From NCBI GenBank assembly GCA_963718745.1, contig OY970370.1, positions 1,547,566-1,611,565 of the forward strand: DNA of 64,000 nucleotides, read 5' to 3'. This document shows, piece after piece, positions 4,439 to 43,956 of the stretch. The notes beneath the pieces are model-generated. The model made no database searches and was not told the origin of the DNA. It worked only from the letters and a program-made list of their open reading frames with translations. How positions within the stretch are numbered: the stretch's first letter is position 1; each line of letters begins with the position of its first letter. Both the position numbers and the translations under genes were made by a program. Origin of the DNA: Candidatus Fermentibacterota bacterium (GTDB lineage: Bacteria; Fermentibacterota; Fermentibacteria; Fermentibacterales; Fermentibacteraceae).

Positions 4439-4958
4439 CGGGGAGTAGGGGAAGAGCCTGCCCCAGACGAGAGCGTACGAGAGCCCGGGAGCAAGCAGGA
4501 GATTCCTGCTGCTGCCGCATGTGCGGTTCTCCAGCTCTTCCGGCTCTTGTCATCTCCATGCCCCCTGCGTCGTGCGAACCCGGTCTATCCGGCATCGCCG
4601 GGCTGTTCCTGGCGGGAAGGGAGGATTCAACTGTCCGCCGGCACGCCACGGCGGACAGTCCCTTCCGGGACCAGGACTATAGATTCCGGGACGGATGCGA
4701 GCAATAATGACCGGAATGGCGGATCACGCTTCTGGCCGGGAGAGTTGAGCGGTAAGGTTATAGCCTTCTGTGCCCCGGTGCCGCCCTTGCCTGGGAATAT
4801 CCGCACAGCAGCCGTTTGTGAACATCGCTCTGAAGAGCGCCTTGATGGCGGCTGCCATCATGAAGGAATCTTACTTGTCAGCGTGGGGCGGTTGGTGACC
4901 GCAGCGGCAGACAGGGAACAGGGCAGAGATAGTGCCCTGTCCCCCCAGAGAAGCGAAT

Positions 4959-5783
4959 CTAGCGGACTATCGCGAAAGTCGCCGAATCGAACGACTGCCC
5001 TGTGGATGCCGTGACCACATACGCTCCTGACGGGAGAGGGTTCCCGTCGTTGCCGCGGCCGTCGAAGTCGAAGTAAACCTCTTCTGTCGATGTCTGCACA
5101 CCATCGAGAGTTCGCACGCACCGACCCATGATGTCGATTACTTCGGCACCGACAGCTTCGGCGTCATCTCCACGGTAGCGGAAGACGAACGGGCCGGAGA
5201 TTGAGACCCTGGTTACACTCAGCCCGGCTTCGGAAGCAGGAAGAGGAATCCCGGCTGTAATCTCCGAGCCGTCGGAAAGGTTTTCAGGGAAGAACGGTCT
5301 GTACATGACGTCGTAGTTGGTGTGTCCGCTGCTGAGATAGGCCGCCCCTGCAGCGAAGAAATGCCCCGCCTCCGTGACACAGCCACCCATCTGATCGCAG
5401 GATGGGGCAGTTAATCCGAAGGAGCCCGTGTCGGCGCTTCCGACAAAGGAGTGAGTGAGTTCGAAGTCGTTGTTCAGCCTTCCGATCCAAATATACCATT
5501 CGTCTCCATCTCTTACCATGCCGGAGACCATGTAGCCCGCGGAGAACAGCTCGAAATCGTAGACTCTGATCCCATCGAAGGGATTCGGGGGATAGACTTT
5601 GTAATCCCTAAGGAAGTTCAGCGACTCGTCGAGGATAGTAATCGAGATGTATGCATCTGTATGCTGGAAGATGCCCTCCATGCTCTGAGTGGTGATCGGA
5701 TTGCCCATCACGACATAGCCGGGGGCTCCCGGAAGGGGAAATGATGTTCGATCTCCTGATACTGCTGACGATTGCGGCTTCAC
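4959..5783 (-). CDS. protein with T9SS/FlgD-like C-terminal sorting domain, possibly N-terminally truncated
   Basis: C-terminus EVYFDFDGRGNDGNPLPSGAYVVTASTGQSFDSATFAIVR resembles the Por-secretion C-terminal domain; no signal peptide, and the 5' end overlaps the divergent gene at 5741. Confidence 0.45.
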   Translation of the reverse strand: MKPQSSAVSGDRTSFPLPGAPGYVVMGNPITTQSMEGIFQHTDAYISITILDESLNFLRDYKVYPPNPFDGIRVYDFELFSAGYMVSGMVRDGDEWYIWIGRLNNDFELTHSFVGSADTGSFGLTAPSCDQMGGCVTEAGHFFAAGAAYLSSGHTNYDVMYRPFFPENLSDGSEITAGIPLPASEAGLSVTRVSISGPFVFRYRGDDAEAVGAEVIDIMGRCVRTLDGVQTSTEEVYFDFDGRGNDGNPLPSGAYVVTASTGQSFDSATFAIVR

Positions 5784-21505: not shown

Positions 21506-21699
21506 CTCCGACTCCTCTCGAAAACCATACGACTATACCCTACCTTACAGGTATTCTATAGTGGAATCACATCTTGTGGTTCCCGACCATTTGAATCAGC
21601 AACGCAAGGTTCGTCCATATCCGCTGACAACCCGCAATCAGGGTCGCTGTATCAGTTGATGATGCCCCAGGGGGGAACAAAGCCCCCCTGGGACAAGTC

Positions 21700-21905
21700 G
21701 TGATAGCTATCTATGCATGGACGAGCCTGCGAGCACGGCGAAGGGGAGACACGGTCGTTGCCGGTTGGAACATCATTATAGCCCAGCTCATCAAGACGCG
21801 GAGTGGAGCAGGGTTGCGTAAGGGCAGCTCAGAATGCCTTCTACCCGCTCTGCTGCAAAGAAGCCTCTCCTGGCCGAGAGAAGGGTAGCCATGTCGGATT
21901 GGAGT
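21700..21905. repeat. mosaic intergenic repeat, copy D
   Basis: About 120 bp nearly identical to 25530..25640 and about 55 bp to 29545..29600; lies between the FG-GAP gene stop and the Met-rich gene; a 10-bp GC hairpin sits at 21666..21692. Confidence 0.6.
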
Positions 21906-21934: not shown

Positions 21935-23755
21935 CTACTCCACCACCACGACGCGTCTCGCGGTCTCGAACTCCCCGGCCTGCATCCTTACGAAGTAGAC
22001 GCCCGGGGGATGCTCGCCCAGTCCAACCTGCGAATAGCCGGGCTGGTATTCGATCGAACCCGTCGATTCCGCAACCCTGCCCGCGATGTCCAGAACGGTC
22101 AGAGTCACCATGGAAGGCTCGGGAATGCCGATCGTGACGAGCAGGGGCCCGGAGACGGGATTGGACACGAAGGGCATCAGCTCGAAACCGCCGGGCATCT
22201 CCGGCCCCTCCGTGCCGAGCGGGTTCCAGGAGACCGTTACGTCGAGCAGAGCGGGGCTGGCGCCGGGATCGTCCGTCGTCATCACGGACCTGTACTGGAA
22301 GTAGTTCGCTCCCTCAGGAAGCACGCCCGCGAGACTGCACGGGTCATCGAGAATGGCCGACCACGCCCCCATCTCGTCGGAATCGTCCGAAGCGCGCACC
22401 TGGAAGGAAATGTCGGTCTGGGAGGGAGAGTCTTCAGTCCATGTCAGACCTCCCCAGCCCGGATCGCCCTGCAGGTATAGGATGCTGGATTCCAGGACCG
22501 CCTCGTTCACATGGATGTCCCACCAGCGGAAGAAGTGCAGGTCCGGCTCGAAGCTGGTCCCCAGGATGTCCATCCAGCCGTCGCCGTCCACGTCACCCGG
22601 GATGATGCAGTCGGCAGTGTTGTACTCCCCGATGTCGCAGACCGTGTGCTCCTCCCAGTCCGTCCCCAGTCCGTCGGAGTTCTCGATCCAGATGTACTGT
22701 CCGCCAAGCCCCGTTGTGACCAGGATGTCGCTGTCTCCGTCCCGGTCGAGATCGCCGGACCCGAGGCCCCAGCAGCAATCGGAATAGGCTGCAACTACGT
22801 GCTTGGTCCAGTCCGAACCCGTGCCGCTCAGGTTCTCCCACCACGAGACGGCGTCCGAGTCAGTACCTGAACCGAGGACGTCGAGATCCCCGTCTCCGTC
22901 GAAATCGGCCGCATGGACGGAGAACGAGCTGTTGTAGCCGTCATCTATGGCGGCCATGGTCCAGGTCGTCCCGAGACCGTCGGTGTTCTCGAGCCAGAAC
23001 ACGCCGTACTCGGCTGAACCTGCGGCAATGATGTCCAGATCTCCGTCTCCGTCCAGATCGCCGGGATGCACACCGTGGTAGGAACTGCTGAGCCCCGTAT
23101 CGATCTCATGTTCGAGCCAGTCGGAGCCGTCCCCCTCGACGTTCTCCCACCAGTACCAGTACAGGCCGAAGACGTCTGCGCAGACGATGTCGATGTCTCC
23201 ATCCCCGTCGAAGTCCCCCGTGCACGGGGTCACTGGCATCTCTGGAGCGGCGCTGATCGAACAACCGATCCATAGAGTCCCCTGGCCGTCCACGTTCTCG
23301 AACCAGGAGACCAGGTCCTGGGCTGCGACGAAGTCGGTGTCGCCGTCGCCGTCGATGTCGCTCGCGCAGATGTATCCGCCGGTTGCAGCTGCTATAAAGT
23401 GAATCGTCCAGTCGGTGCCCGTGCCGTCGTTGTTCTCCCACCAGCAGACGGTGGAGGAGCTGCTCGCAACGACGTCCAGGTCCCCGTCGCCGTCCATGTC
23501 GGCAGCATCCAGGTATTCGGGCTCGAAGATGTCGTCGATGGTGTTCTCGTACTCTCCAGGGAGGATCCCGACCTGCCCGGCGGGAGACGACCACGACGCT
23601 CCGGCGCATTCGTAGAATTCTCCACCCCATGCCGTTACCGGCCCCTGAGTCCCGGGGCCGCCGGCCCAGTCGGTCTGGCTTTCGCTGTCGGCATGGCAGA
23701 CGGAAACTGTAATCAGAAGGGCTATGAGGAGGAAGAGTCGCTGCATCCGGACCAC
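21935..23755 (-). CDS. FG-GAP/VCBS repeat protein with T9SS C-terminal sorting domain
   Basis: Signal peptide; repeated DxDGDGDxD calcium-binding-like motifs; C-terminus TLTVLDIAGRVAE...PGVYFVRMQAGEFETARRVVVVE. Confidence 0.8.
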   Translation of the reverse strand: MVRMQRLFLLIALLITVSVCHADSESQTDWAGGPGTQGPVTAWGGEFYECAGASWSSPAGQVGILPGEYENTIDDIFEPEYLDAADMDGDGDLDVVASSSSTVCWWENNDGTGTDWTIHFIAAATGGYICASDIDGDGDTDFVAAQDLVSWFENVDGQGTLWIGCSISAAPEMPVTPCTGDFDGDGDIDIVCADVFGLYWYWWENVEGDGSDWLEHEIDTGLSSSYHGVHPGDLDGDGDLDIIAAGSAEYGVFWLENTDGLGTTWTMAAIDDGYNSSFSVHAADFDGDGDLDVLGSGTDSDAVSWWENLSGTGSDWTKHVVAAYSDCCWGLGSGDLDRDGDSDILVTTGLGGQYIWIENSDGLGTDWEEHTVCDIGEYNTADCIIPGDVDGDGWMDILGTSFEPDLHFFRWWDIHVNEAVLESSILYLQGDPGWGGLTWTEDSPSQTDISFQVRASDDSDEMGAWSAILDDPCSLAGVLPEGANYFQYRSVMTTDDPGASPALLDVTVSWNPLGTEGPEMPGGFELMPFVSNPVSGPLLVTIGIPEPSMVTLTVLDIAGRVAESTGSIEYQPGYSQVGLGEHPPGVYFVRMQAGEFETARRVVVVE

Positions 23756-24053
23756 CCCCGTTTAAATTTTCACTGCATATCTGATCTCGCACGACATCAG
23801 ACCTGCGTCAAGCCCAACTTCCAGATCGCTTTGACTTCAGGTCCCAGCTCTGGTCGAAGGTTTCGCAGCAGTTTCTTTCGCTAGGCGGAAGACAGGAGTC
23901 ATTCACCTTGAATCCTTTTCATGACCGAGCAAGCTCTGGTTACTGCGGTGCAGTCCTCTGGAGGCACCGACCCTCCCGATCTGCCGGAAACCTGTAAATG
24001 TCCTGCCCGGGAAGCATATCCATCGTTTTCTACGATCCGATGAAGGGTAGGCA

Positions 24054-24082
24054 TTGACTCTACGTACGGCATTGCGTACGAT
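24054..24082 (+). promoter_or_regulatory. sigma70-like promoter TTGACT-N17-TACGAT with CGTACG-N6-CGTACG operator palindromes
   Basis: About 25 nt upstream of the antitoxin start; paired short palindromes in a toxin-antitoxin promoter are the expected autoregulation architecture. Confidence 0.45.
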
Positions 24083-24105
24083 ACAGAAGATAGAAAGGGG
24101 AGCGT

Positions 24106-24348
24106 ATGTCAGCGTTGAGCGCCACTGATGCAAGAGCCCGGCTGTACCGCCTCATCGACGAGGCGGCCGAGACTCATGAACCGATCCTGATAACCGGGAA
24201 GCGGAGTAACGCCATTCTCCTCTCGGAGGAGGACTGGCGTTCGATCCAGGAAACCCTGTTCCTGCTCTCGGTCCCCGGCATGCGCGAGAGCATCGTCGAG
24301 GGCATGAAGACACCGGTCGAGAAGTGCAGCGAGAAGCCCGGCTGGTGA
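24106..24348 (+). CDS. yefM: type II antitoxin, Phd/YefM family
   Basis: 80 aa; MSALSATDARARLYRLIDEAAETHEPILITGKRSNAILLSEEDWRSIQETLFLLSVPGM matches YefM; AAAGGGGA RBS. Confidence 0.85.
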   Translation: MSALSATDARARLYRLIDEAAETHEPILITGKRSNAILLSEEDWRSIQETLFLLSVPGMRESIVEGMKTPVEKCSEKPGW

Positions 24349-24608
24349 CCTGGCGCCTGGTCTACACTGCGCAGGCCCGGAAGGACGCGAAGAAGATCCA
24401 GGCAGCCAGCCTCCGGGAAAAGACGGAAGCTCTCCTCGAACTGATCGCGAAGGATCCTTGCGCCGCCCCTCCTCCCTTCGAGAGGCTCCTCGGTGACCTG
24501 AAGGGCGCGATATCCCGCAGGATCAACATCCAGCACAGACTTGTCTACCAGGTTCTCGAAGCAGAGAAGACCATCAAGGTCCTCAGGATATGGACGCACT
24601 TCGAGTAG
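24324..24608 (+). CDS. yoeB: type II toxin, YoeB/Txe family
   Basis: RLVYTAQARKDAKKI...RRINIQHRLVYQV...IWTHFE matches YoeB; the likely start is the GTG at 24345 overlapping the antitoxin stop. Confidence 0.85.
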   Translation: MQREARLVTWRLVYTAQARKDAKKIQAASLREKTEALLELIAKDPCAAPPPFERLLGDLKGAISRRINIQHRLVYQVLEAEKTIKVLRIWTHFE

Positions 24609-24705
24609 ACAGAATCAGCCCTCTGGAAGCATGACCGCCATGCCTTCTTGCCTGCCTGGACCCTCTTCCGTATCGTCACTTCTGGCGTATGCGAGAGGGG
24701 GGCGT

Positions 24706-25182
24706 ATGCGGATCGTCGCCGAAGTTCTCGGGCTAGTCACGATCTTCACTTTGATGCTCTCAGGATGCGGCAGTTATGAGGACGAAACCGTCATCTTCAC
24801 CAAGGTCCTCCCGGCTGACGTTCAGCAGCTCATGGACAACGGGTATCTCGACAGCGGGGGTGCAAACCCCATCCTTTATCCTGTCGAGGAAATGTGGGAA
24901 GACTTCTACTTCGCAGAAACCCCCGAGATGCTGGACTCCCTGTTCCAGGAATATCCTCCAGTTCTGGACAGCCTCTTCCCGGAAGGCGGCTCACTTCTGA
25001 TCCTGGACCTCCACACAGAAATTGAGGATGAAGTTCTAGGCTACTCTATGGAAGCCAGTTCTGACACAGTGCGGATATGTGTTGAGATAAGATACCGAGA
25101 TGTCGGAAGCCCTTATCCAGGGATTCGCGAGTGGGTTTTCCCGATGGGAGTTGTTCTTGATCCGGAGACTCCCGCTGAGTAG
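24706..25182 (+). CDS. hypothetical lipoprotein
   Basis: Internal start MRIVAEVLGLVTIFTLMLSGCGS with GAGAGGGGGG RBS. Confidence 0.55.
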   Translation: MRIVAEVLGLVTIFTLMLSGCGSYEDETVIFTKVLPADVQQLMDNGYLDSGGANPILYPVEEMWEDFYFAETPEMLDSLFQEYPPVLDSLFPEGGSLLILDLHTEIEDEVLGYSMEASSDTVRICVEIRYRDVGSPYPGIREWVFPMGVVLDPETPAE

Positions 25183-25307
25183 ACTGACGCCGACCAGCTG
25201 ACCTCGCGGACTTCCACACGGATGCAGTAGACGATCTCGCCTAAACCCCGTAATCTCAAAAGGCTTCAACATCCTGGGGCTGCTCAACAACCCGAAGAAG
25301 ACGGATG

Positions 25308-25640
25308 TGTCCCACGGGGATACGCAGCCCCCCGTGGACCGGTCGCGCGAACGAATCGAGCTGAATGGCAGTTGTGAGCGCGACAAGGCATCATCACGGT
25401 CGTTTCACGGAAACGACGATGCTGTGCTTATCTACTGGTGGTGATGATGCCTTTGCCACTTCCCGCAGGGAAGTGGCGGTCCTGGTCCTTTGTGGATGGA
25501 ACACCCTGATGGCCCAACTCGTGAAGATTGCGGCGTGGAGCAGAGTTTCGTAAGGTCTGCTCAGAATGTCCTCTACCCGCTCTGCTGCAAATAAGCCTCT
25601 CCTGGCCGGAGAAGTAATAGCCATGTCGGATTGGAGAATG
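25308..25640. repeat. mosaic intergenic repeat, copy A (includes a hairpin variant of the tRNA-Glu 3'-end motif)
   Basis: About 270 bp aligns with 27396..27650 at high identity; its 3' part matches copy D. Confidence 0.65.
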
Positions 25641-25794
25641 GCCTGAACAATGTGGATGGGATTGCAGGCCAGCTCGATTCCGGATGATCAATTCCCTCGA
25701 TGTTGACGACACTCACATCTGAACTTGCTGGCATGTCCTAGTCTAGGCATAGATAGAATACACTCGGCTTCGGTAATGGGCTGGAGGTGGAACG

Positions 25795-27285
25795 GTGTTG
25801 GCGCTCCTTTTACTTGCAGCGACCGCGAGTCCACCCGAGATCCTGTGGGCTGCCTGGTCCCCTGGCGGGATAGTTGATGTAGAGTGCGCCGGCTTCGTGA
25901 ATGGCGACTCCACCGAAGATGTCTTTGCCGCGTCAGATGAAGCCTCCGGGCATGGCATCATGTGCCTGGACGGGGCTACAGGTGGAATCATCTGGCTCAA
26001 CGACTCTCTTCCGGGAATCACTGGCACGGGTTGCCTCCGAGCTATCAGAGACGTGAATCTTGACGGAGTTCATGATGTTGCGGCAGGTTCATCGGCGAAT
26101 CCTGCGGTGGCTGTCTTCTCTGGAAGCACAGGTGAGATTCTGTGGAGCATTCCCCAGGAGTATCCGGTCTGTTGGATCGAGGCCGCCAATGGTCCTGGTC
26201 CCTCGGACGTCTACGTTCTTGTTAACCGACAGAACTCATACTGGACCAGTTGTGCCGCGCTTGTCGGTCAAACTGGAGCGCAGCAGTGGGCCACGCCTTA
26301 CGTGGCAACCACAGATCTCTGGCTAAGAGCGACTGAAGGTGACATCAACGGTACAGGCTGGTCCGAGTTCGGTATATCGGTTGACAGGGGATCTGTCAGC
26401 GGCGGATGGGCCGACGTGATGGACGGTTCGAATGGCGGCCTGATCCATCGAGAAAACACGATGTATTTCGGATCCATGGACGTATGCGACACGCCCATGC
26501 CGTTGATGGTCATGTCTCACTTCGGAACCTACCCCGTGACATGGGCGTACTCCTTTGTCTCGGGCACTGTAGTATGGCAGAGTTACAACCCGGATCTGGG
26601 TGGCGCCCAGCTCCAGATTCTCCCGAGCATCACCCAGCCTGCCACCCCGGATCGTGAGATCCTCGGATTCGGAAGCAGCAGCCACCTGGTCCTGTTCAGT
26701 TGTGATGAGGAATACACTGACGTTTTTGTTGAATACGTCTTTCCGAGCGCGATCAGGGCGGTTGACTATTTCTGTGAGGCTGCAACGTGGAGGGTTGCCT
26801 TGGTGACCTCGGCCAGATTCCATTGCCCCCTGCTGGACCTTTGGTCCCCACCTTCCACAGAGCCTTCAATCGCCTTGCCTAACGCGGATGCACAGGATCT
26901 TTGCCTGATCGAGTCGGTTCTCTCTCCGACACCACTCGTAGCTGTCGCAATGAAAGCAGCCGGACCAGGTGTCTGCGCGATTCGCACCACATGGCCCGAA
27001 GGCATCGAGGAGGAAAGCACAGCCCCCAATCTGGTCTTGAGCTCCTGTTCGCCTAGTCCTGGGACGGGGGAGTTCAGTCTCACCTGGTCATCCGGCATGG
27101 GGCCGACGGAGATCGGAGTCTATGAGGAATCCGGCAGACTCTGCCTCGATTGCGACCTGGGTCTGATGCCCGAAGGCGAACACTCCACACAGCTCGACCT
27201 GCAGGAAATGCCCTCCGGCTGCTATGTGGTCGTAGTCTCCTGTGGCACAGAGCGGGCCTCCACGAAGCTGGTTGTGCTCAGGTAG
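25795..27285 (+). CDS. secreted repeat protein with T9SS-like C-terminal domain
   Basis: GTG start with GGAGGTGG RBS; signal MLALLLLAATASPP; C-terminus GVYEESGRLCLDCDLG...PSGCYVVVVSCGTERASTKLVVLR. Confidence 0.7.
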   Translation: MLALLLLAATASPPEILWAAWSPGGIVDVECAGFVNGDSTEDVFAASDEASGHGIMCLDGATGGIIWLNDSLPGITGTGCLRAIRDVNLDGVHDVAAGSSANPAVAVFSGSTGEILWSIPQEYPVCWIEAANGPGPSDVYVLVNRQNSYWTSCAALVGQTGAQQWATPYVATTDLWLRATEGDINGTGWSEFGISVDRGSVSGGWADVMDGSNGGLIHRENTMYFGSMDVCDTPMPLMVMSHFGTYPVTWAYSFVSGTVVWQSYNPDLGGAQLQILPSITQPATPDREILGFGSSSHLVLFSCDEEYTDVFVEYVFPSAIRAVDYFCEAATWRVALVTSARFHCPLLDLWSPPSTEPSIALPNADAQDLCLIESVLSPTPLVAVAMKAAGPGVCAIRTTWPEGIEEESTAPNLVLSSCSPSPGTGEFSLTWSSGMGPTEIGVYEESGRLCLDCDLGLMPEGEHSTQLDLQEMPSGCYVVVVSCGTERASTKLVVLR

Positions 27286-27375
27286 GAGAGCCTCCGAAGC
27301 TGCTTCCCGATTCCGTGCTGTAGTGCGTCTGGCTGTCTGTATTAGCGCAAAATATTGCTGTATAACTGATTATAT

Positions 27376-27660
27376 GGTGGCGGTCCCACGGGGCAACGCA
27401 GTCCCCCGTGGACCGGTCGCGCGAACGATTCGAGATGGATAGCCGTTGTGAGCGCGACAAGGCATCATCACGTCGTTTCTCTGGGAACGACGATGCTGTG
27501 CTTATCTACTGGTGGTGATGATGCCTTTGCCACTTCCCGCAGGGAAGTGGCGGGCCTGGTCCTTCGTGGATGGAACACCCTGATGGCCCAGCTCATCAAG
27601 ATCGCAGCCTGGAGCGAGGTTTCGTGAGGGGCAGCTCAGGATGGTGTTATCAGCTCCAAT
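27376..27660. repeat. mosaic intergenic repeat, copy B (starts with a duplicate of the tRNA-Glu 3' terminus)
   Basis: TGGCGGTCCCACGGGG (revcomp = the last 16 nt of tRNA-Glu) followed by the CAACGCAGT-loop hairpin and about 250 bp shared with copy A. Confidence 0.65.
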
Positions 27661-27845
27661 TGGCCATCGATCCTCTACAGGATGGAGAAGTAGTAGCCAG
27701 AGGGGATTGGACCACCACGGTATCTTGCCATTGTTGTGTCTGGTCGACTACAGATCGCTGCCGTCAACCAACCGAGCTAGCTGGTTAGGATACTGGAGCT
27801 CCATGCCCCAGTTCTGAAGACCTTCCTAATGGAACAGCCAACCCA

Positions 27846-28931
27846 CTACTGCAGCTCGAAAATGTAGACCCGGGGCCACGAGCTGGCGAAAGGATTCCAG
27901 GCAAGAATCCCGCGATCTGTGATGCGGAAGATCATCAGCTCGTCGCCGGGGAGGCCACTGACAGCGGAGGTGAACTCCAGCGTGCCATCCGACCTATACA
28001 CGTCGAACTCAGGGTGGAAATAGGAACTGTGGTGCACCCAGACCCTTCCCAGGGAATCCTGGACCTGGATCCCGATCACACCCAGCTCCCTTGGATCAGG
28101 GCGCCAGGCCCCGCCCATGTTGTCACGGTACCGGCGCCAGAGGAGTTCCTCCTCTACTTCCAGAGAATCGCGGAAACCTGGTTCCCGGGGATTTTGAAGA
28201 GTATCCAGGGGGGTACCGTCCTGCGCTAAAACTAGGACACGATTGTTGACGCCAGAGAGGGCCACATATATGTGCCCGTCACTATCTGTAGTTACTGCAG
28301 GCTGTCCGGCATAAAGCTCGTAGAGATCCTCGGGATTGATGCTGATCTGCTGAAGTGAGCTAAAGGTAGTGGTTATCTCTCCGGTGTCGATGCTCCACCG
28401 GGACAAGTCCATAGAAAGCGTGAGATCGCCATTCTGATCCGCAGTGAGATTCCCGGCCCAGCCGAGAGCGGAGCTGTCTGGAAGGATACTCAGCTGATCG
28501 ATGACCGAATTTCCGGGGAGTGTGACGGAACGCACCGTTGCCAAATCAGCTCGGTAGTACACAAATCGTCGAAGGTAGTATTCGTATAGGACGAAGCCTT
28601 CGCCGAATGGCGTTATCCCACCGATGTGATTGTATTCCAAAGGGCCATTGCCCAGATTCTTGACCCGGCTGATGCAGAGACCATCCGGAGAAAACAGACG
28701 CAGATCCTGATACGCCCCGTCCGCAACCAGTATGTTTCCGTCCGGTATGAAGAATGCCCCAGCGACTTTGCCCAGTAAAAGGTTGCTATCTCCGATTTCA
28801 ACTCCGATGGAATCGACAACTCGCAGTTCTCTGTATGTGATCGGATCATCGGTTGCTGGTGTGGGTCCTTTGCAGGCGATAGCCATAAGGATCAATGGCC
28901 CGCCTGAAACAAGGAAATATCCACTTCTCAT
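27846..28931 (-). CDS. hypothetical lipoprotein, beta-propeller-like
   Basis: Start MRSGYFLVSGGPLILMAIACKG (lipobox) with GGAGG RBS; repetitive beta-rich sequence. Confidence 0.65.
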   Translation of the reverse strand: MRSGYFLVSGGPLILMAIACKGPTPATDDPITYRELRVVDSIGVEIGDSNLLLGKVAGAFFIPDGNILVADGAYQDLRLFSPDGLCISRVKNLGNGPLEYNHIGGITPFGEGFVLYEYYLRRFVYYRADLATVRSVTLPGNSVIDQLSILPDSSALGWAGNLTADQNGDLTLSMDLSRWSIDTGEITTTFSSLQQISINPEDLYELYAGQPAVTTDSDGHIYVALSGVNNRVLVLAQDGTPLDTLQNPREPGFRDSLEVEEELLWRRYRDNMGGAWRPDPRELGVIGIQVQDSLGRVWVHHSSYFHPEFDVYRSDGTLEFTSAVSGLPGDELMIFRITDRGILAWNPFASSWPRVYIFELQ

Positions 28932-29149
28932 CCCGCTAATCACCTCCAGTCTGCAATATCATCAGTTTCGCAGCTCTGCCTGTCTAGTTACAGGGATCGA
29001 AGTCCAATCCGGGGAAGGTCAGCATTCCGAGCTTCAGAACCCGGGGACCGTTAATGCGATCCTTCAAGACAAGGACGAGCTGCTTGCACGACCAGGCATC
29101 GTCATGGTCGTTTTAGGAAACGACGGCTCTGAGCTTGTAACCAGTTGGT

Positions 29150-29650
29150 GATGATGCCTTTGCCACTTCCCATGGGGAGGACGCTCAGGCCCTCTCGCGG
29201 CTCGTCTCTTCAGTTTCGCAAGGCGAAACTGATACTTAGCAGAACACTCCAGTTCCGCGAAGCGAAAATGGTACGTAGCGCAACAGCATGGTTCCCGAAG
29301 GGAACCTGCGAGTGCGCGTGTCTGTGTTACCAGGGAACCTGCAAGTGTGCGTGAATGTCGTTGAAGGCTTTACCGCTCTCGCAGGTCCGCTTCGCGGACC
29401 GTGCTGCCGCTAAACTCATCCCTCTTCGCGGGATTCGAGACCTGTCGGGCCAGGTCATTCCCGCAGACGCGGGAATGACCGTGGCGGTCCCACGGGGCAA
29501 CGCAGTCCCCCGTGGACCTGCCGTGAGAGCTTCGTGCGAATACTGTGAGCCTGCGAGCACGGCGCAGGGACGACACGGTTGTTGCCGGAGGGAACGACCA
29601 TTCAACCGTTATGTCTTCGAGGTGTCGTCACTGCTGCCACTTGCCGGAGG
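29150..29650. repeat. mosaic hairpin-rich repeat block, copy C, directly downstream of tRNA-Glu
   Basis: Contains a second duplicate of the tRNA-Glu 3' end (~29482..29497), the hairpin GGTCATTCCCGC-AGAC-GCGGGAATGACC, and units shared with copies D and E. Confidence 0.65.
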
Positions 29651-29654
29651 CAAG

Positions 29655-29730
29655 TGGCGGTCCCACGGGGAATCGAACCCCGGTTTGATGGCTGAGAACC
29701 ACCCGTCCTAGACCTCTAGACGATGGGACC
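29655..29730 (-). tRNA. tRNA-Glu (anticodon CUC)
   Basis: Revcomp GGTCCCATCGTCTAGAGGTCTAGGACGGGTGGTTCTCAGCCATCAAACCGGGGTTCGATTCCCCGTGGGACCGCCA; cloverleaf with TTCTCAG anticodon loop; CCA encoded. Confidence 0.9.
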
Positions 29731-29766
29731 GCAGGCGAGGCCGGTACTATCGCCCGCGAGGGGCTT

Positions 29767-31293
29767 TTACGTCAAGACCCCTCGGCGGGTTGCCCTTCCG
29801 CCGGCTCTTCTCTGAAGAGATCGGCGTACTTCTGCTCCGATGTCCGACAGCATTGCCTGGGTCACGGGGCCGAGGGCCTCGATCGCGCGTCGCAGCCGCA
29901 TGCGCACCATGTCGGTACCCAGCAGCGCCATCGAGTCGTACAGCGGGGTGGAGGCCTTCGACCCGCTCACGGCCATGTAGAACGGTTTCGTGAGATCCCG
30001 CAGCTTGATGCCCAGCCTGTCGCTCATGGTCTTGAACATCTCCTCCACGCCTTCGGCAGTGAGACCCTGCATGCGCTCGATCTCCCAGATCGAGTACTGG
30101 AGGATCTCCTGCGACTCCTGCGGCGTCCGGCCCTTCAGGAGCAATGCTTCCGCATCGAGCGGCACGGAGTCCGAGAAGAAGAAGGAGGTGAGATGCCCCC
30201 AGTCGGAGAGGGTCTCGAGACGGGTGTGGGCAACCCGTGCAACCTTCCCGAGGTATTCCTGATTGAGCCCCCAGCTCTGGAGGCGGGCAAGAAGGGTGTC
30301 GGGCGTGAGGTCCTCCCTGATGTACCTTGCATTCAACCACCGCAGCTTGGCAAAGTCGAACACCGGGCCGCCCAGGGTGACGTCCTCGAGCCTGAACTCC
30401 CTCACCATGTCCTCGACTGTGAACTTCTCCTCCCCGCCCGGCATGCCCCAGCCCATCATCCCCAGGTAGTTGAGGAGAGCCTCCGGGAGGAAGCCCGCCT
30501 GCCTGAAATACGTGATGGAGGTGGGGTTCTTCCTCTTCGACAGCTTGCTCTTGTCCGCATTCCGCAGCAGGGGCAGGTGGCAGAAGACGGGCGGCTCCCA
30601 TCCGAACAGGCTGAAGAGGTGGACGTGCTTGGGGACGGAGTTGATCCACTCCTCGCCGCGGATGATGTGGCTGATCTTCATCAGATGGTCGTCCACCACG
30701 ACCGCGAGGTGGTATGTGGGGAATCCGTCGCTCTTCATCAGCACCTGGTCGTCGACCGTGGACCAGGCCTTCCTGATCTCTCCCCGCAGGAGGTCCGTGA
30801 AGACGCAGTCGCCCTCCAGGGGCGCCTTCATCCGTATTACGAAATGCTCGCCAGCCGTGGCCCGCCTGTCGGACTCCTCGCGCGGGATGTCCCTGCAGTG
30901 CCTGTCATAGCCGGAGCCCGCGCCCGTCCGGCGGGAGTCGCGCATGGAGTCCAGGCGCTCCTTCGTGCAGAAGCAGCGGTATGCGGCTTCCTTCGAGAGA
31001 AGGGCTTCGGCGTGCTCCCTGTAGATCGCGAGCCGCTCGCTCTGCCTGTAGGGTCCATACGGTCCGCCGACACCGGGACCCTCGTCCCACTTCAGGCCGA
31101 GCCACTCGAGGGAATCCAGGATGGCCTTTTCCGAATGCCCGGTGGACCGCTCCTGGTCGGTGTCCTCGATCCTCAGGACGAAGCTGCCGCCGTTCCGCTT
31201 CGCCCAGACATAGTCGAACAGAGCCTGGTAGGCGGTTCCGACATGCGGGTCCCCGGTCGGGGAGGGGGCGATCCTGGTCCTGACCTCCGTCAC
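29767..31293 (-). CDS. gltX: glutamyl-tRNA synthetase
   Basis: HIGH-type motif PHVGTAY and KMSKS-type KLSKRK; full-length class I GluRS; start overlaps the glnS stop. Confidence 0.95.
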
Positions 31294-43379: not shown

Positions 43380-43860
43380 TGGTTCAAAAAGGAAGGACGC
43401 TCGGGCCCTCTCGCGGTTCGCCACTCCAGTTCCGCGAGGCGGAACTGGTAGGTAGCACGACAGCATGGTTCCCGGAGGGAACCTGCGAAAGTGCGTGCAA
43501 GTCGTTATAGAGGTCGCTCGGAGCCCTCTCGCGGCTCGCCTCTTCCGGCTGATGCTCTGTGAGCTGGCGAGCCACTGACGGGCCAGGTCGTTCCTGCGCT
43601 TGCAGGAACGACCGATGCGAGTGTGCGTGCATGTGTTATAGAGGTTCGCTCGGGCCCTTTCGCGGCTCGCCTCTCCGGAATGTTCTTGATCTGGCGAGCC
43701 ACTGACGGGCCATGTCATTCCCGCGGACGCGGAGTTGATGGAAGCCCTGCGGGCTCGTTTGAGGAAGATCGCCCGGGTCCTCTCGTTATCCGCCAGACGT
43801 CTTGAACAACGGATGGCGGATAACTGTCGGACCTGGTCATTCCTGCCCGTGCAGGAATGA
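43380..43860. repeat. mosaic hairpin-rich repeat block, copy E, directly downstream of tRNA-Ser
   Basis: Tandem ~130-bp units sharing blocks with copy C; perfect hairpin GGTCATTCCTGC-CCGT-GCAGGAATGACC abutting the tRNA-Ser 3' end, plus variants with compensatory stem changes. Confidence 0.65.
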
Positions 43861-43863
43861 CCG

Positions 43864-43956
43864 TGGCGGAGAGGGAGGGATTCGAACCCTCGGATAGGTG
43901 ATAAGCCCATCAACCGCTTAGCAGGCGGTTGCCTTCAGCCTCTCGGCCACCTCTCC
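43864..43956 (-). tRNA. tRNA-Ser (anticodon GCU)
   Basis: Revcomp GGAGAGGTGGCCGAGAGGCTGAAGGCAACCGCCTGCTAAGCGGTT...GAGGGTTCGAATCCCTCCCTCTCCGCCA with long variable arm; CCA encoded. Confidence 0.9.

Follow-up and report, generated by a model that had tools for sequence, protein, structure and literature searches.

A probable self-repressing YefM/YoeB-family toxin-antitoxin operon in accessory DNA of a Candidatus Fermentibacterota bacterium

We analysed a 64,000-nucleotide stretch of Candidatus Fermentibacterota DNA, referred to throughout as the window, and found that a 567-bp unit within it is very probably a functional type II toxin-antitoxin (TA) operon of the YefM-YoeB (Axe-Txe) type that represses its own promoter and lies in accessory DNA. 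Family membership, fold, residue conservation, purifying selection, and conservation of the operator along with its covariation with the DNA-reading residues of the antitoxin support this reading directly, while DNA binding, repression, RNase activity and toxicity are expected by analogy with characterised homologues. This is an ordinary YefM/YoeB module, and a Tyr-to-Phe change in the toxin and the presence of repeats bearing a tRNA end are its only non-routine points. The unit is laid out as follows, in window coordinates:

24043..24609, plus strand: TA unit (promoter-operator, antitoxin gene and toxin gene), 567 bp, with edges set by blastn against four relatives
24054..24059, plus strand: -35 hexamer TTGACT, a sigma-70-like match read from the sequence
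24063..24068, within the promoter spacer: operator palindrome 1, CGTACG, from sequence and conservation in homologues
24075..24080, overlapping the -10 hexamer: operator palindrome 2, CGTACG, from sequence and conservation in homologues
24077..24082, plus strand: -10 hexamer TACGAT, after a 17-nt spacer from TTGACT
24097..24102, plus strand: Shine-Dalgarno sequence of the antitoxin gene, GGGGAG, read from the sequence
24106..24348, plus strand: Phd/YefM-family antitoxin, 80 aa, ATG at 24106 and TGA at 24346-24348, with an N-terminal DNA-binding part and a C-terminal toxin-binding part
24345..24608, plus strand: Txe/YoeB-family toxin, 87 aa, GTG at 24345 and stop at 24606-24608

The initial annotation had described a promoter, TTGACT-N17-TACGAT, that holds two CGTACG palindromes 12 bp apart from centre to centre, and the sequence reads exactly so, with the second palindrome providing the TAC of the -10 hexamer. 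This promoter (24054-24082) is the sole sigma-70-like match in 23500-25200 (1 found, 0.4 expected); as a consensus match only, the prediction is weak evidence when taken alone. Downstream, the antitoxin stop and the toxin start share the sequence GTGA at 24345-24348, and the overlap first described between the toxin GTG at 24345 and the antitoxin stop is the norm of the family: a GTGA junction was found in 67 of 75 loci compared, and its conservation implies translational coupling of the two genes.

Several competing gene calls were rejected. Some database entries start the toxin at GTG 24324, giving a protein of 94 aa, but the start in homologues is at MTW, and the GTGA junction is a conserved feature. 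Antitoxin calls of 132 aa in some relatives (4606-5004 in loci L085 and L087) run through the promoter-operator and are over-extensions. Both the 94-aa toxin calls (24324-24608) and the 132-aa antitoxin calls are probably annotation artefacts. Opposite-strand open reading frames (ORFs), including 24174-24599, were without support. Past the module, a 158-aa ORF on the plus strand (24706-25182) begins 97 nt beyond the toxin stop and carries a lipoprotein-type signal (…LMLSGCGS) with no family match. No terminator was predicted between the toxin stop and this ORF, and it may be read through from the TA promoter.

Both proteins match the families first proposed for them, with profile scores above the curated cut-offs. 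The antitoxin scored 66.1 bits against PF02604 (cut-off 29.8) and 34.9 bits against TIGR01552 (cut-off 20.8). It fell below the cut-off of the E. coli-specific equivalog NF008499 (34.8 bits versus 121), which places it as a Phd/YefM family member and not as an orthologue of E. coli YefM. Its best solved relative is Sa2YefM of Staphylococcus aureus (7V5Y/7V6W), to which it is identical at the aligned positions Thr7, Arg10 and Tyr14. One antitoxin in its 90%-identity cluster carries the annotation Candidatus Fermentibacter sp., and the genome is probably Candidatus Fermentibacter-like. The toxin scored 78.7 bits against the Txe/YoeB equivalog TIGR02116 (cut-off 51.8), covering profile positions 1-80 of 80, and 33.6 bits against PF06769, YoeB_toxin (cut-off 27).

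To place the active site, toxin residues were aligned to the YoeB proteins of E. coli (reference sequence identical to chain 2a6q_E), A. tumefaciens and S. aureus, as well as to 24 relatives. The toxin carries Glu46, Arg59, Arg65, His85 and Phe86, and Glu46, Arg58/59, His64, Arg65 and His85 are invariant across the 24 relatives. Glu46, Arg65 and His85 align with E. coli Glu46, Arg65 and His83, so that three of the four members of the catalytic set Glu46/Arg65/His83/Tyr84 (E. coli numbering) are present and the fourth, Tyr84, is conservatively changed to Phe86. The initial annotation had named missing YoeB catalytic residues as grounds against its reading; the alignment shows the Glu, Arg and His in place, and Phe for the Tyr. 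Of the 120 database proteins closest to the toxin, 116 carry His-Tyr at this site and four carry His-Phe: the window toxin itself and three homologues (P0015-P0017) with 77-79% identity to it. We know of no experimentally tested member of the clade to which this toxin belongs, which is marked by a WTH[YF]E C-terminus and 29-31% identity to the E. coli and S. aureus YoeB proteins.

[quoted passage not shown] By analogy, Phe86 suggests a naturally weakened enzyme, for which full toxicity would not be assured, without refuting YoeB function. These observations could also fit an attenuated or domesticated pair, in which the Phe86 toxin is too weak for growth arrest and the module persists mainly as an autoregulated DNA-binding complex or as an anti-addiction system against incoming YoeB modules. 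Such a pair would account for Phe86 at a position where 116 of 120 homologues have Tyr, for the behaviour of the two E. coli mutants, and for the tighter constraint on the antitoxin (dN/dS 0.03-0.08 relative to four related modules) than on the toxin (0.09-0.22). We consider it unlikely, however, because the toxin is still under clear purifying selection, the remaining active-site residues are all intact, and E. coli Y84F keeps activity; moreover, Phe is also found at this position in related modules P0015-P0017, which favours a tolerated functional variant over decay. Relative to the four related modules, both genes are under purifying selection.

The predicted fold also places the toxin among the YoeB proteins. 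An AlphaFold2 model (pLDDT 89.9, pTM 0.80) was compared with solved structures using Foldseek, and the top three matches were Sa2YoeB chains (7v5y_E and 7v6w, TM 0.88-0.89), the best being 7v5y_E (TM 0.89, rmsd 2.2 Å). These were followed by other YoeB, RelK and YafQ structures, with E. coli YoeB (2a6r_C) at TM 0.81, and ParE2 or ParE structures appeared first at rank 32. That the protein is a ParE-type gyrase poison or a DNA nuclease, as opposed to a ribosome-dependent mRNA endonuclease, is therefore highly improbable: its best Pfam score is for ParE_toxin (37.7 bits, slightly above the 33.6 bits for YoeB_toxin, the two being overlapping models) and a preprint (bioRxiv 10.1101/795211) reportedly describes metal-dependent DNA cleavage by A. 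tumefaciens YoeB, but the TIGR02116 score far exceeds that for the RelE/StbE NCBIfam model (30.8 bits), the toxin retains the catalytic Glu, Arg and His of YoeB, the top folds are all YoeB, RelE-family (RelBE2, RelK) or YafQ RNases, and the partner antitoxin is YefM-type and not ParD-type.

We next consider the operator. A scan of one genome per species yielded 80 loci from many phyla; the genome that contains the window was not one of them. A homologous antitoxin match was found in 79 of the 80, abutting the toxin in all listed loci but L045. Upstream regions of 75 loci, the window included, were compared, with the motif sought within 90 nt of the start codon; they come from Pseudomonadota, Acidobacteriota, Verrucomicrobiota, Myxococcota, Chloroflexota, Planctomycetota, Fermentibacteria and other groups. 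Exact GTAC-N8-GTAC was detected in 54 of the 75 (base shuffles gave 0.08 loci), and 70 had the motif when one-base variants were allowed (shuffles, 1.9 loci). Absence of the palindromes from homologous promoters had been named at the outset as grounds for doubt; the GTAC pair is present in 54-70 of the 75. Spacing was 12 bp in 54 loci and 13 bp in one, and the promoter consensus was a-CGTACG-(6 variable, A/T-rich)-CGTAC-g/a-n-T. Across homologous promoters, conservation covers the GTAC core together with its C and G flanks. In 45 of the 54 homologues a TACnnT -10-like hexamer begins with the TAC of the second box, and TTGAC precedes the first GTAC by 9-10 nt in 28 of 54 (exact) or 36 of 54 (one mismatch).

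In the four close relatives, which share 83-90% nucleotide identity with the module and each carry it in a different neighbourhood, the block GGCATTGAC-nnnn-CGTACGGCATTGCGTACGATA hardly varies, and palindrome 1 does not vary at all. The genes differ from those of these relatives by a synonymous divergence of 0.27-0.89, and neither the flanks nor the sequence further upstream can be aligned to the window. Within the 64-kb window, CGTACG-N6-CGTACG occurs once, even at one mismatch (0.03 expected from shuffles), and single CGTACG sites are not enriched (11 found versus 8.7 expected), so the signal lies in pairing and position. Collectively, the comparison suggests that CGTACG-N6-CGTACG, fused to the -10 hexamer, serves as the operator of a whole YoeB clade that has been widely transferred.

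The antitoxin residues that would contact these boxes vary along with them. In the 7V6W structure, Sa2YefM uses Arg10 of its first helix to read GTAC, and Thr7 and Tyr14 to read the flanking bases (PMC8717551). Arg10 was present in all 70 loci with the motif. In the five motif-less loci, Gln10 was found in three and Gln14 in four (Fisher p = 1.5e-4), a covariation that involves few independent lineages, since three of the five are cyanobacterial. Its direction fits direct readout of GTAC by the antitoxin.

Two sets of loci depart from the common pattern. The cyanobacterial loci L033, L042 and L049, together with L007, have no upstream GTAC pair and carry Gln in place of Tyr14; the three cyanobacterial loci also have Gln in place of Arg10. 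Three loci from Verrucomicrobiota (L001, L002 and L073) have CGCACG/CGTGCG (GCAC) boxes, likewise spaced by 12 bp, and antitoxins with ATSAR where the others have ATD/EAR. These loci may form a small natural series of operator-specificity changes.

Palindrome 2 overlaps the -10 hexamer, so promoter function could explain some of its conservation. On a rival reading, the CGTACG pair would not be an operator for the antitoxin but would belong to the promoter incidentally, bind a host regulator unrelated to the module, or be a target of restriction-modification. We regard this as very improbable, because palindrome 1 lies in the little-constrained spacer yet is conserved like palindrome 2, the motif accompanies the module across at least 10 phyla and different hosts with its spacing fixed at 12 bp, it covaries with antitoxin Arg10 and Tyr14, the pair is found nowhere else in the window, and there is direct structural and biochemical precedent for such an operator (PMC8717551, PMC1802561).

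An autoregulatory operator is the preferred reading, and it is how the palindromes were first interpreted; GTAC pairs 12 bp apart over the -10 hexamer match the arrangement of E. coli yefM-yoeB (PMC1802561). On this model, transcription would start from TTGACT-N17-TACGAT, and translation of the antitoxin and toxin would be coupled via the GTGA overlap. The antitoxin dimer would bind both CGTACG sites via its N-terminal helix, with Arg10 reading GTAC, and its complex with the toxin would bind them more tightly. By homology with the E. coli system, the antitoxin would act as repressor and the toxin as co-repressor. Because one palindrome is in the spacer and the other is over the -10 hexamer, occupancy of the operator is predicted to exclude RNA polymerase. 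If the antitoxin were lost, free toxin would enter the ribosomal A site and cleave mRNA, with Glu46 as general base, His85 as general acid and Arg65 stabilising the transition state. With Phe in place of the C-terminal Tyr, it would probably be a weaker enzyme than the Tyr-bearing majority.

The surroundings of the module agree with its initial description as accessory DNA: its homology edges are sharp, the relatives carry it in four neighbourhoods, and it is flanked by lineage-specific repeats that include copies of the tRNA-Glu 3' end. In blastn comparisons with the four close relatives, homology runs from 24042/24043 (24050 against L087) to 24607-24609, and the 567-bp module appears to move as one unit. 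The repeats form a direct-repeat family of up to ~340 nt that separates the genes from ~21.6 kb to tRNA-Glu:

21658-21876, plus strand: direct repeat, outermost copy
25303-25640, plus strand: direct repeat
27377-27720, plus strand: direct repeat
29086-29178, plus strand: direct repeat
29437-29652, plus strand: direct repeat

The outermost repeat is 2.2 kb away from the module and the next one 0.7 kb. The module had been placed at the edge of a repeat-bounded cassette region, which is roughly right in that it belongs to the outermost, tRNA-distal cassette, but it sits inside that cassette and not at an edge. The cassette region extends between the gene of an LTXXQ protein and tRNA-Glu (29655-29730, minus strand), which follows gltX, and the genes in this interval encode FG-GAP proteins, proteins with T9SS tails, and proteins without a family match. 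The G+C content of 24-30 kb (24000-30000) is 0.57, versus 0.62-0.69 on either side, and this low-G+C stretch coincides with the cassette region beside tRNA-Glu. The tRNA-Glu(CUC) gene is 36 nt downstream of gltX on the same (minus) strand (29655-31293), placing the tRNA beside the gene of its own charging enzyme.

Copies of the repeat family also adjoin the TA unit in relatives. By blastn, a copy was detected directly upstream of the unit in L081, L084 and L087, and directly downstream as well in L081, while L090 has only a weaker, degenerate resemblance to the repeat upstream. The stretches concerned in these relatives, which are metagenome contigs, are, in locus coordinates:

L081: 4529-4603 and 5285-5453
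L084: 4525-4692 and 6495-6542
L087: 4548-4605

In the window, the repeat upstream of the TA unit is missing and the upstream region of the FG-GAP gene takes its place. L081 is syntenic with the window at tRNA-Glu, but its TA and FG-GAP genes are in reverse order.

Known vehicles of mobility were also considered. No integrase or other recombinase was found between 19.8 and 31.3 kb, and the repeats are ~340-nt direct repeats unlike attC sites; an integron reading of the cassettes was rejected on these two grounds. A plasmid or phage origin was likewise set aside, as PLSDB contained no DNA match to the module and phage records gave only distant protein matches (34-36%), so there is no evidence for a known plasmid or phage. 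We also entertain, as quite unlikely, a more specific model in which the 567-bp unit is a self-contained cassette that moves between intergenic "landing pads", the structured, lineage-specific ~340-nt repeats, in an integrase-less array downstream of tRNA-Glu, with the TA pair, possibly with an attenuated Tyr-to-Phe toxin, stabilising the array as in chromosomal integrons. If such an array exists, it would carry secreted FG-GAP and T9SS-tail proteins, and its pads would open with a copy of the tRNA-Glu 3' end.

The repeats at 27377 and 29481 open with 17 nt that exactly duplicate the tRNA-Glu 3' end (GTGGCGGTCCCACGGGG) and include a copy of the hairpin that follows the real tRNA-Glu. Searches found no Rfam match for the repeats and no Pfam match for the short ORFs within them. 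The complete repeat (27370-27720), taken as minus-strand RNA, folds very stably (-144.5 kcal/mol, z = -5.0). Twelve copies of a 75-nt repeat core (25474-25560 / 27548-27640) vary mostly at every third base in a plus-strand frame, which reads ..GWNTLMAQLVKIAAWSxxS and then a stop; no long ORF or start codon is conserved among the copies, and the same stretch also folds into a stem. The core could be coding or RNA. For the repeats as a whole, candidate identities are att-type scars left by serial insertions, a MITE, or an RNA whose end is a tRNA-like acceptor minihelix with CCA.

Short hairpin repeats form another cluster at 43422-43870, downstream of tRNA-Ser (43864-43956, minus strand). Among its hairpins are GGTCATTCC-loop-GGAATGACC and GTTATAGAGGT...CGCGGCTCGCCTCT, and some of its repeats are 87% identical to 29245-29320 beside tRNA-Glu.

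As a module of known type with an operator of known type, the finding alone matters little. The comparison of motifs and their covariation with Arg10 and Tyr14 extends an observation given in 2007 as "data not shown" (PMC1802561). The toxin is a natural equivalent of E. coli Y84F and would lend itself to asking whether nature tunes toxin strength. In addition, the module flags a variable accessory region, linked to tRNA-Glu, in a lineage that has been little studied.

The workings of YefM-YoeB modules and of their paired GTAC operators have been clear since 2005-2007, and homologues number in the thousands. Axe-Txe of the Enterococcus faecium plasmid pRUM, an autoregulating mobile module borne on plasmids or islands, belongs to the same NCBIfam equivalog as the window toxin, Txe/YoeB TIGR02116. 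Phd-Doc of phage P1 shares a Phd/YefM-homologous antitoxin and paired GTAC-core palindromes (PMC1802561), but its palindromes are 13 bp apart and its toxin, Doc, is unrelated. The closest solved relative of both window proteins is the S. aureus Sa2YefM-Sa2YoeB system (7V5Y, 7V5Z, 7V6W; PMC8717551), which has the same antitoxin residues Thr7/Arg10/Tyr14 and the same type of toxin tail, W-S/T-H-Y/F-D/E. The toxins are only ~31% identical, however, and the Sa2 palindromes are 11 bp apart from centre to centre (PMC8717551), compared to 12 bp in the window and in 54 of 75 promoters.

The E. coli system offers the most detailed comparison. Its operator consists of paired TGTACA boxes, 12 bp from centre to centre, that cover the -10 hexamer (Kedzierska, Lian & Hayes, NAR 2007; PMC1802561), with YefM acting as repressor and YoeB as co-repressor. 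In the same study, paired TGTACA boxes were common upstream of yefM-yoeB homologues, while many other homologues had bare GTAC cores 11-13 bp apart ("data not shown"; PMC1802561). The window module shares with E. coli YefM-YoeB the antitoxin-then-toxin gene order, the RelE-superfamily toxin fold, and equivalents of Glu46, Arg65 and His83, but its toxin is 29% identical to E. coli YoeB, ends in WTHFE where E. coli has RYHY, and has Phe at the position of Tyr84. Both operators have two GTAC-core palindromes, separated by 6 bp and 12 bp from centre to centre, over the -10 hexamer. They differ in that the window boxes are CGTACG and not TGTACA, with only the GTAC core in common, and in that both window sites are 6-bp palindromes, without the extended "long" palindrome of E. 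coli. The window locus belongs to the group with bare GTAC cores, and its architecture is one already known from E. coli yefM-yoeB since 2006.
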